Positions 1-805 are shown, numbered from the stretch's first letter. The stretch is DNA of 805 nucleotides from Escherichia coli (GCF_003334765.1 NZ_QOWT01000096.1); one strand, 5' to 3'. Translations and numbers: made by a program. The notes: a model not told the origin generated them from the letters alone.

Positions 1-805
1 CTGAAACGTATTTTGCCTGGTAACGGGCGTCATCAAGTGCATTATGGCGCTCACCTTCGAATGGAATAGCCGTTCTGGCATCGAAGTCTATGGCTTTCCC
101 CAGCTCAACGATTGTGCGTACATCGCGATCGTTGTAGTAACGCCACGGGCAGGGGATCCCCTGCCGTTCGTATGAACGGCGCAAAATCGTGTTGTCGAAG
201 TTGGCTCCATTTCCCCAAACCTGAACAAAAAATTCACCGGAGTTTTCGTCGATAAATTCCCGCAATTGTAACAGTGCATCATCTAACGGGATTTCATCGG
301 TCATAATGGCAGATTGCGCTTCGCGTGATTGCTTAAGCCACCATTTAATGGTGTCCCGATCAATGACTCCGCCAGCAGTTTCCAGATCGATAGTCTTACT
401 AAATTCCGGTCCCATATCTCCGGTTTGCGGATCGAAAAATATTGCACCTATTGAGATGATCGGGGCATCAGGATTTTTTCCCATGGTTTCAAGGTCGATC
501 ATTAGATGGTCACACGTCCTGCTGGTGGATGTGATTTCTTGATGACCGTTCACCTTAATTGAGTGATCTGCCGTCTCGCCAGTTTCATTATCGCTATCGT
601 GATGCTGATTGCCGCCAGTGTTCTCCTTGTGTGGATGTTCAGCGCCTTCCATTTCCTCCGGATCATCTTCCTGAACTTCAACCTGATACTCTTCATCGAA
701 TGTTTCTTGGTATGTTGCGTCGCCCATCACCGCGCCACAATCAGGGCAGTTGCCGCCGCCGGTCTGACCGCAGGCGGTGCAGACTTTTTCCACTTCCTGT
801 TGCGC
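1..805 (-). CDS. Internal fragment (5' and 3' ends outside window) of a large prophage-type nuclease: RecE-like Cys4 zinc ribbon and acidic linker followed by a DEDDh (DnaQ-like) 3'-5' exonuclease domain
   Basis: Reverse-complement translation in the frame where + 803..805 is codon 1 gives 268 consecutive sense codons with no stop: [268 protein letters not shown]. It contains recognisable exonuclease motifs and an enterobacterial-looking codon pattern. The other five frames are broken by stops or give only the short ORFs in the track. Confidence 0.88.
148..165. repeat. Perfect 18-bp palindrome GGCAGGGGATCCCCTGCC (9-bp arms, no spacer, GATC at the centre)
   Basis: Read directly: + 148..165 equals its own reverse complement; position 147/166 breaks the symmetry. 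Lies inside the CDS (codons for R-Q-G-I-P-C-P). Confidence 0.95.
163..180. repeat. Inverted repeat / hairpin: 7-bp stem GCCGTTC (163..169) and GAACGGC (174..180) with a 4-nt loop GTAT
   Basis: Read directly; overlaps the 3 terminal bases of the 18-bp palindrome, giving a 33-bp block (148..180) of dense dyad symmetry. Confidence 0.85.
566..721 (-). other. Acidic, His-containing low-complexity linker between the zinc ribbon and the exonuclease domain
   Basis: Translation [53 protein letters not shown] is dominated by D/E with several H, G and N and has no hydrophobic core pattern, consistent with a flexible interdomain linker. Confidence 0.6.
737..781 (-). other. Cys4 zinc-ribbon-like motif (CxxC-x7-CxxC)
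   Basis: Translation [19 protein letters not shown]: Cys codons at + 779..781, 770..772, 746..748 and 737..739. Glycine-rich spacer typical of small zinc ribbons. Confidence 0.6.

Follow-up and report, generated by a model that had tools for sequence, protein, structure and literature searches.

A DEDDh-type exonuclease domain joined to a RecE-like hinge in a common Escherichia coli prophage protein

The locus and its gene

An 805-nucleotide (nt) stretch of Escherichia coli DNA (GCF_003334765.1, NZ_QOWT01000096.1), referred to here as the window, carries on its minus strand a large part of a prophage gene annotated as an exonuclease. The reverse complement of the window is open in frame 1 through all of its 268 codons, with zero stops, and represents the C-terminal third of a modular prophage protein of about 824 residues, in which a DEDDh-type exonuclease domain follows a hinge that is shared with RecE. 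The complete 824-residue coding sequence (CDS), which contains the window and is named 'exonuclease', is found in E. coli strain 510016, and the features of the window are listed in Table 1. On the plus strand of the 805 nt all open reading frames (ORFs) are of 78 residues or less, an Rfam scan of the window returned nothing at E<=1, and no repeats were found in it.

Many E. coli chromosomes match the window DNA at 99.8% identity, and of 5426 complete E. coli genomes 4066 contain at least 80% of it, in as many as 8 places per genome. Lambdoid phages, including Tritos, HannyBb, the PPompW group and several vB_Eco isolates, have it too, and their records label the gene either 'exonuclease' or 'exodeoxyribonuclease VIII'. 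RefSeq names the 824-residue protein 'exonuclease', '3'-5' exonuclease' or, often, '3'-5' exoribonuclease'. When compared to locus L001, one of many equal 99.8% matches, the window has two base differences, at positions 615 and 707, one of which, in the variable portion of the acidic tether, replaces Asp (ENTDGNQ in L001) by Gly (ENTGGNQ in the window).

Table 1. Features of the 805-nt window, numbered from its first nucleotide
Feature	Position (nt)	Strand	Remarks
ORF fragment	1..805	-	residues 544-811 of an 824-residue prophage 'exonuclease' of the YdfE family; WP_097346547.1, 99.6% identical
DEDDh (DnaQ-like, DexA/Rv2179c-like) 3'-5' exonuclease domain (predicted polarity)	1..508	-	Pfam PF16473; last 13 codons outside the window
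Exo III motif H-N-A-L-D-D	29..46	-	catalytic His and Asp, the 'h' type of DEDD; from alignment with T4 DexA
Exo II motif N-F-D-N	191..202	-	catalytic Asp; from alignment with T4 DexA
Exo I motif D-L-E-T	485..496	-	catalytic Asp and Glu, full-length D647 and E649; from alignment with T4 DexA
Connector specific to DEDDh-type proteins	509..564	-	starts at the mosaic junction, after ETGETA
Chi site GCTGGTGG	521..528	+	antisense to the gene, 12-16 codons downstream of the junction
recE-homologous DNA (hinge: knuckle and acidic segment)	565..805	-	blastn against recE genes; protein match to RecE 509-591
Conserved acidic segment	629..736	-	window residues 24-59; nearly invariant in RecE and DEDDh-type proteins
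Four-cysteine knuckle CTAC-x8-CPDC (presumed zinc-binding ribbon)	737..781	-	window residues 9-23; full-length residues 552-566

The exonuclease domain

The Pfam family PF16473 (Rv2179c-like 3'-5' exoribonuclease domain) matches window residues 100-268 with an E-value of 2.3e-66, and when the full-length protein is used the match (E 5.2e-67) covers positions 2-177 of the 177-position profile. This is the only family that a Pfam scan of the full-length protein reports (the Pfam copy used does not report YdfE_N or YdfE_C). All five catalytic residues (D, E, D, H, D) are invariant in an alignment with T4 DexA and the standalone phage homologues. In a Foldseek search the best matches are the T4 DexA entries 8KEN and 8KEL (E 1e-9), followed by RNase T and oligoribonuclease, while a PDB sequence search with the protein returned DexA only, with 8KEL as the nearest entry and no match to 3H4R, the RecE nuclease. 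A first-pass annotation, made by a model from the sequence alone, had proposed that a DEDDh domain follows the RecE-like linker in place of a PD-(D/E)XK nuclease, and that the polarity of the enzyme might differ from that of RecE. The domain assignment is borne out, and the conserved DEDDh catalytic residues together with the fold strongly predict a 3'-5' polarity, opposite to that of RecE.

Members of the PF16473 family are found in 1286 phage records, T4 dexA among these. In lambdoid phages standalone homologues occur that are 58-60% identical to the domain of the window. The 58%-identical homologue of phage mEp235 belongs to a canonical Rec module with the gene order Erf, SSB, exonuclease and anti-RecBCD, and that of phage mEp460 is located directly upstream of xis. 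A survey of lambdoid genomes describes DnaQ-type nuclease genes both in Rec modules and near int, and also reports 'RecE-2' proteins that lack a nuclease domain (PMC12315714). DexA itself favours single-stranded over double-stranded DNA (PMC12153337).

PF16473 owes its name to the Mycobacterium tuberculosis exoribonuclease Rv2179c, a name that is echoed in many of the RefSeq records, and RNase T and oligoribonuclease are among the close structural neighbours of the domain. An RNA-directed enzyme might shorten operon transcripts from the 3' end, for example the precursor of the small RNA DicF, the dicF gene being part of the same operon, or act on host RNAs. We regard such a function as very improbable, since the nearest characterised relative by both sequence and structure, DexA, is a DNA exonuclease, the fusion partners of the scaffold are DNA-recombination domains, and nothing in this analysis ties the gene to DicF processing.

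The RecE-like hinge and the mosaic junction

The hinge is homologous to RecE far beyond chance. Window residues 1-83 align without gaps to residues 509-591 of E. coli K-12 RecE, with 73% identity and an E-value of 3e-38, and with the hinge taken longer the same stretch of Rac-SA53 RecE is 73% identical over 148 residues. The solved RecE nuclease domain (PDB 3H4R, RecE 605-866) begins at residue 605, therefore the hinge shared with RecE is the stretch just upstream of the RecE nuclease domain. The first-pass annotation had assigned a peptide of the window (residues 9-59, nt 781-629 on the minus strand) to this part of RecE, and it was right. The middle region of the full-length protein is related to RecE as well, with residues 262-626 being 38% identical to RecE 278-591, and in alignments with the K-12 and SA53 RecE proteins nothing past full-length residue 626 resembles RecE.

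The same boundary is seen in the DNA. In blastn comparisons nt 565-803 match the K-12 recE at 85.4% and nt 565-805 match the Rac-SA53 recE at 88.8%, nt 1-564 have no match in either of these two genes, and the similarity breaks off sharply at nt 564/565. The protein alignment splits directly after ETGE in all three C-terminal types compared, and at this very position the RecE proteins run on into a PD-(D/E)XK nuclease, which is of one or the other of two types.

The hinge consists of two conserved elements, the cysteine knuckle and the acidic segment. The four cysteines of the knuckle are invariant across four proteins that carry three different C-terminal domains, and the acidic segment is invariant or nearly so in the same comparison of four proteins with three C-termini. 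Zinc binding by the knuckle is only inferred, because its matches to Pfam zinc-ribbon families are not significant (E 0.2-0.7). The ratio of nonsynonymous to synonymous substitution rates (dN/dS) of the hinge ranges from 0.13 to 0.6 over 51-69 codons, with 0.13-0.48 for the stretch from the knuckle to EHPH, which hints at purifying selection, although the sample is small and carries little weight. A hinge protein search and the search for representatives described below found the knuckle-containing hinge only in Escherichia, Shigella and E. albertii. The hinge search, which is word-indexed, yielded almost only short partial fragments from E. coli, Shigella and E. albertii, from which architectures are not resolvable.

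Architecture of the full-length protein

An AlphaFold2 model of the full-length protein was built on 115 sequences, and its pLDDT values are given here as means of ten-residue blocks. The protein begins with a confident alpha/beta domain (residues 1-~95, pLDDT 84-95), which is followed by less certain helices (residues ~100-240, pLDDT 35-78) and by a very confident helical domain (residues 245-345, pLDDT 94-98). Residues 347-~460 are disordered, apart from short single-residue exceptions (pLDDT ~30), and after a short helical element (residues 470-500, pLDDT 64-79) the chain is disordered again between residues 503 and 547 (pLDDT 29-44). The four-cysteine knuckle is modelled with short strands (residues ~550-570, pLDDT 74-77), the following disordered stretch takes in the acidic segment (residues 572-636, pLDDT 33-37), and the DEDDh domain closes the model (residues 640-820, pLDDT 92-98 with one block at 89). 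In a structure search with the full-length model the DEDDh domain dominates the matches, and the N-terminal domains yield no fold assignment. The order of the modules is thus a YdfE_N-type alpha/beta domain, a helical domain shared with RecE, disordered stretches, the knuckle, an acidic tether and the DEDDh domain.

Upstream of the window, the moderately confident helix between disordered flanks contains an element, KLLAxSRGEFVxGISDPNDPKWVKGI, which is almost invariant in RecE and the DEDDh-type proteins (full-length residues 478-503; L001 8803-8880). A weaker copy of this element is present in protein P0252, where it reads ADRGEYIEGISNAEDKNW. It may represent a docking motif.

Domain combinations and exchange

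Representatives of the related proteins were taken from a search of 1.84 billion proteins and their domains were mapped locally. Among these, the scaffold and the hinge are joined to four or more kinds of C-terminal end and to two kinds of N-terminus, the alternative C-termini being two PD-(D/E)XK types, DEDDh and a Rad52-type annealase. The shuffling among the modules of prophage early-left operons, which the first-pass annotation had suspected, is therefore real, and it is more extensive than was proposed there.

The product of the window gene (P0240) combines a YdfE-type N-terminus, the middle region and the hinge with a DEDDh C-terminus. The E. coli protein P0243 (805 residues) carries the K-12 RecE N-terminus, with 100% identity over 277 residues, and the hinge in front of a DEDDh domain that is 99% identical, and the near-identity of both halves points to a very recent exchange between co-resident prophages. 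An RecE-type N-terminus is joined to DEDDh in an intact 813-residue ORF of locus L010 as well. In other proteins PD-(D/E)XK nucleases follow the same N-terminal scaffold: P0256 has a YdfE-type N-terminus followed by an SA53-type PDDEXK-like domain (Pfam DUF3799), and P0272 has a mixed N-terminal part followed by a K-12-type RecE nuclease. In Citrobacter and Atlantibacter, proteins of 750-850 residues possess a divergent RecE-like N-terminus without the knuckle and a DEDDh domain of 55-61% identity, and the Citrobacter relatives show Pfam Exonuc_VIII plus Rv2179c-like matches. In Klebsiella aerogenes and Enterobacter, proteins of 740-790 residues carry the YdfE-type scaffold and no nuclease, and their C-terminus is a domain of ~200 residues that is modelled at a pLDDT of 95.

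Two further scaffold proteins, P0269 (683 residues) and P0248 (702 residues), have neither a nuclease nor an annealase domain at the C-terminus, and share the C-terminal motif L-T-[YW]-x-Q-x-L-T-I-A-A-x-x-G-L-C-A-N-P-A, which may be a further type of end. Two 'standalone' DEDDh proteins of E. coli with 70-87% identity (P0199 and P0174) were considered as independent genes and rejected, since both lie within copies of the long gene, one in a copy that is frameshifted twice and the other as an internal call inside the intact 813-residue ORF. The latter ORF (L010 4102-6543) has no gene call in its source, where only an internal '3'-5' exoribonuclease' of 180 residues is called, and in L007 (737-3127) the long gene is broken by two frameshifts into products of 456, 157 and 183 residues. 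These cases indicate that short 'standalone' E. coli DEDDh proteins in the databases can be artefacts or decayed copies.

Operon context and Chi

The gene stops 41 nt (13 codons) past the window and is followed by the genes for an excisionase and an integrase and by the ompW attachment site, and upstream of it are ydfA, ydfC, dicB and a ydfD-like gene (DUF1482). In lambdoid E. coli prophages and phages (PPompW type, Tritos, HannyBb) the early-left operon has the exonuclease gene as its last large gene, and the order is repressor, ydfA/B/C, dicF, dicB, ydfD, exonuclease gene, xis and int. Phage Tritos has the same arrangement, with three small genes between the repressor and dicF. In the Rac prophage recE is separated from xis and int by recT, ralR and ydaC, and the exonuclease gene thus sits in the slot that is held by recE in Rac, upstream of xis and int.

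The neighbourhood supplies the prophage markers that the first-pass annotation had suggested looking for (excisionase, integrase, dicB, ydfA and ydfC). It does not supply the recT/bet-like annealase that was named along with them: none is annotated in the operon, where the next gene is that of the excisionase, and no annealase, Gam or Abc gene is annotated in the whole Tritos genome. The first-pass annotation had also envisaged a RecE with two nucleases, in which a PD-(D/E)XK or YqaJ-type domain would lie downstream of DEDDh and beyond the window. Since the ORF ends 13 codons past the window with xis and int directly after it, and the full-length protein has PF16473 as its only Pfam domain and no match to 3H4R, this reading is refuted.

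The Chi site of the window is found at the same place in three DEDDh-fusion variants, and is absent from both recE genes. Tritos has 9 Chi sites on the top strand and 2 on the bottom strand, when compared to ~0.9 expected per strand from base composition. With its many Chi sites and no annealase or Gam gene, this phage fits the class with 'no Rec module, many Chi' of the lambdoid survey (PMC12315714).

Prevalence and family

A 301-nt probe that spans the junction between the hinge and DEDDh is covered to at least 80% in 4003 of the 5426 complete E. coli genomes (~74%), and a 401-nt probe for the K-12 recE junction, at the same coverage, in 1694 of these. The DEDDh junction thus outnumbers that of K-12 RecE more than twofold, and several phage records still say 'exodeoxyribonuclease VIII'. 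The protein belongs to PHROG 2082, in which residues 1-824 match positions 1-823 of the 823-position profile (E 0), and precomputed hits to Pfam YdfE_N (PF27430) and YdfE_C (PF27432) are available for its relatives P0504, P0180, P0195 and P0209. The NCBIfam model of RecE (NF007259) gives 277 bits, against a cutoff of 1269, with residues 448-626 on profile positions 440-602 only, and the control proteins K-12 RecE and SA53 RecE give 1830 and 1355 bits, respectively.

In K-12 the counterpart is ydfE (b1577) of the Qin prophage (L004 10079-10999), which shares 88% identity with residues 1-256 of the full-length protein. The K-12 gene is cut by IS2 after these N-terminal 256 residues, so that K-12 is without the part encoded in the window, and the pseudogene ydfE is a remnant of the window's gene. 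The first-pass annotation implied that the architecture was new, which is not the case, as it is that of a catalogued and very common, albeit uncharacterised, E. coli family. It had reserved its claim against a family that is both well characterised and widely annotated; the family is widely annotated, being present in PHROG, in RefSeq and in about three quarters of the genomes, whereas the literature search found no functional characterisation of ydfE or of the 824-residue protein or its family.

Prophage carriage in so many genomes, with several copies in some of these, would also suit a defence or superinfection-exclusion nuclease that degrades incoming and possibly modified phage DNA. The domain belongs to the DexA family, and a standalone E. 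coli member of this family, EcD ('HREX'), is reported to degrade 5hmC-containing T4 DNA and to protect against T4 (PMC12153337). EcD is, however, a different protein, which starts with MIDTET according to its cloning primer. The proposed 5hmC residues of DexA are not conserved in the window protein (W152 is replaced by Y and D169 by A), and D90, the tetramer-forming Asp that is lost in the EcD type, is kept as Asp in IPLDDALL. Moreover, PADLOC gives no match, the scaffold is elsewhere tied to recombination domains, and the gene is part of the repressor-controlled early-left operon. The lambdoid early-left operon is silent in a stable lysogen. Taken together, we consider a defence function unlikely.

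Proposed function

The overall explanation that we favour, and hold to be probable, is a prophage DEDDh 3'-5' exonuclease on a RecE-type scaffold and hinge, which became mosaic by exchange. With respect to function, an intact DEDDh active site, a RecE-type scaffold and the recE slot of the early-left operon are in hand. The C-terminal domain is predicted to strip nucleotides from free 3'-OH ends by two-metal-ion catalysis, and may favour single-stranded DNA, as DexA does (PMC12153337), with a polarity opposite to that of RecE. The scaffold and the hinge would hold the DEDDh domain on a flexible tether and bring it to the same targets as in RecE. The mosaic itself would have arisen through homologous exchange, in the conserved DNA of the hinge, between prophages resident in the same cell, and exchange by recombination is suggested by the P0243 chimera and the 813-residue ORF. 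As to its role, the enzyme might trim DNA 3' ends or flaps in phage recombination or replication after induction, an assignment that we make tentatively and rate slightly short of probable. The link to recombination is based on the operon position, the mEp235 module and the other domains found fused to the scaffold, namely nucleases of the RecE type and an annealase of the Rad52 type.

Several points weigh against this explanation. The activity, substrate and polarity of the protein and of its close relatives are predictions from sequence and modelled structure, and zinc binding by the knuckle is deduced only from four invariant cysteines. The prophages concerned encode no annealase, Gam or Abc partner, hence there is no complete Rec module in which the enzyme could work. 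In literature cited by the lambdoid survey (PMC12315714), the usual effect of 3'-5' exonucleases on homologous recombination is an inhibitory one. What the N-terminal region of RecE does is unclear (PMC11610958), therefore the notion that the scaffold directs the domain to a target is conjecture. Finally, with a Pfam family that is named after an exoribonuclease, RNA is a possible substrate.

The missing partners bear on a further alternative, in which the protein would be a DexA-like scavenger that degrades broken host DNA or oligonucleotides for nucleotides during lytic growth and takes no direct part in recombination. The closest relative with a solved structure, T4 DexA, is documented to act in the scavenging of host DNA (PMC12153337), the catalytic residues are conserved, and no recombination partner is encoded nearby. 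Nevertheless, simple scavenging would not need a 640-residue RecE-type scaffold with a conserved hinge, and standalone homologues occur in Rec modules. In addition, lambdoid phages are not known to degrade the host chromosome, and scavenging appears quite unlikely.

Beyond the explanation of a recombination-linked exonuclease, a broader and more speculative proposal can be made, which we place among the unlikely ones. The RecE/YdfE scaffold, with or without the hinge, could be a general delivery platform of enterobacterial lambdoid prophages for interchangeable C-terminal DNA-handling domains, namely 5'-3' PD-(D/E)XK nucleases, 3'-5' DEDDh nucleases and a Rad52-type annealase. The form with DEDDh, which is the most frequent one in E. 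coli, would then be a RecE of reversed polarity, which might cooperate with host RecBCD and Chi in phages without annealase and Gam. If this were true, the natural C-terminal swaps would offer a way to find the role of the RecE N-terminal region, a region of importance to linear-linear recombineering as applied in direct cloning (PMC11610958).

As a sequence feature the window is ordinary, being part of an annotated gene that most E. coli genomes contain. Among E. coli prophages the commonest 'RecE-like' protein is, by prediction, not a 5'-3' nuclease, and yet phage records often label it 'exodeoxyribonuclease VIII', a name from which the wrong polarity and, erroneously, a RecET-type system would be expected. 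The C-terminal swaps on one scaffold provide an experimental route to what the N-terminal two thirds of RecE do.

Comparison with known systems

The protein resembles RecE in its operon slot, its homologous middle region and its nearly identical hinge, and some variants carry the N-terminus of RecE as well. It differs in that its C-terminus is a DEDDh domain (predicted 3'-5') instead of a PD-(D/E)XK nuclease (5'-3'), in that the N-terminal 261 residues of the window variant are YdfE-type and unrelated to those of RecE, and in that the gene has no adjacent recT partner, whereas the Rac recE has recT directly downstream.

T4 DexA (8KEL/8KEN) has the same fold and the same five catalytic residues, and ranks first among PDB entries in the sequence search as well as in the structure search. 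However, the identity is only ~26%, and DexA is a standalone protein of 227 residues with extra loops, whereas the domain of the window is placed on a 640-residue scaffold; the substituted 5hmC-recognition residues set the two apart as well. The standalone DnaQ-type exonucleases of mEp235 and mEp460 are much closer in sequence and are similarly encoded in the early-left operon, but with ~180-190 residues they possess neither the scaffold nor the hinge. EcD, likewise an E. coli protein, has a domain of the same family, but it is a separate standalone protein, and its diagnostic residues are not present in the window protein. With respect to YdfE/PHROG 2082, the PHROG profile is matched over the full length and the K-12 ydfE is an N-terminal homologue, but everything that is encoded in the window is missing from the K-12 YdfE.

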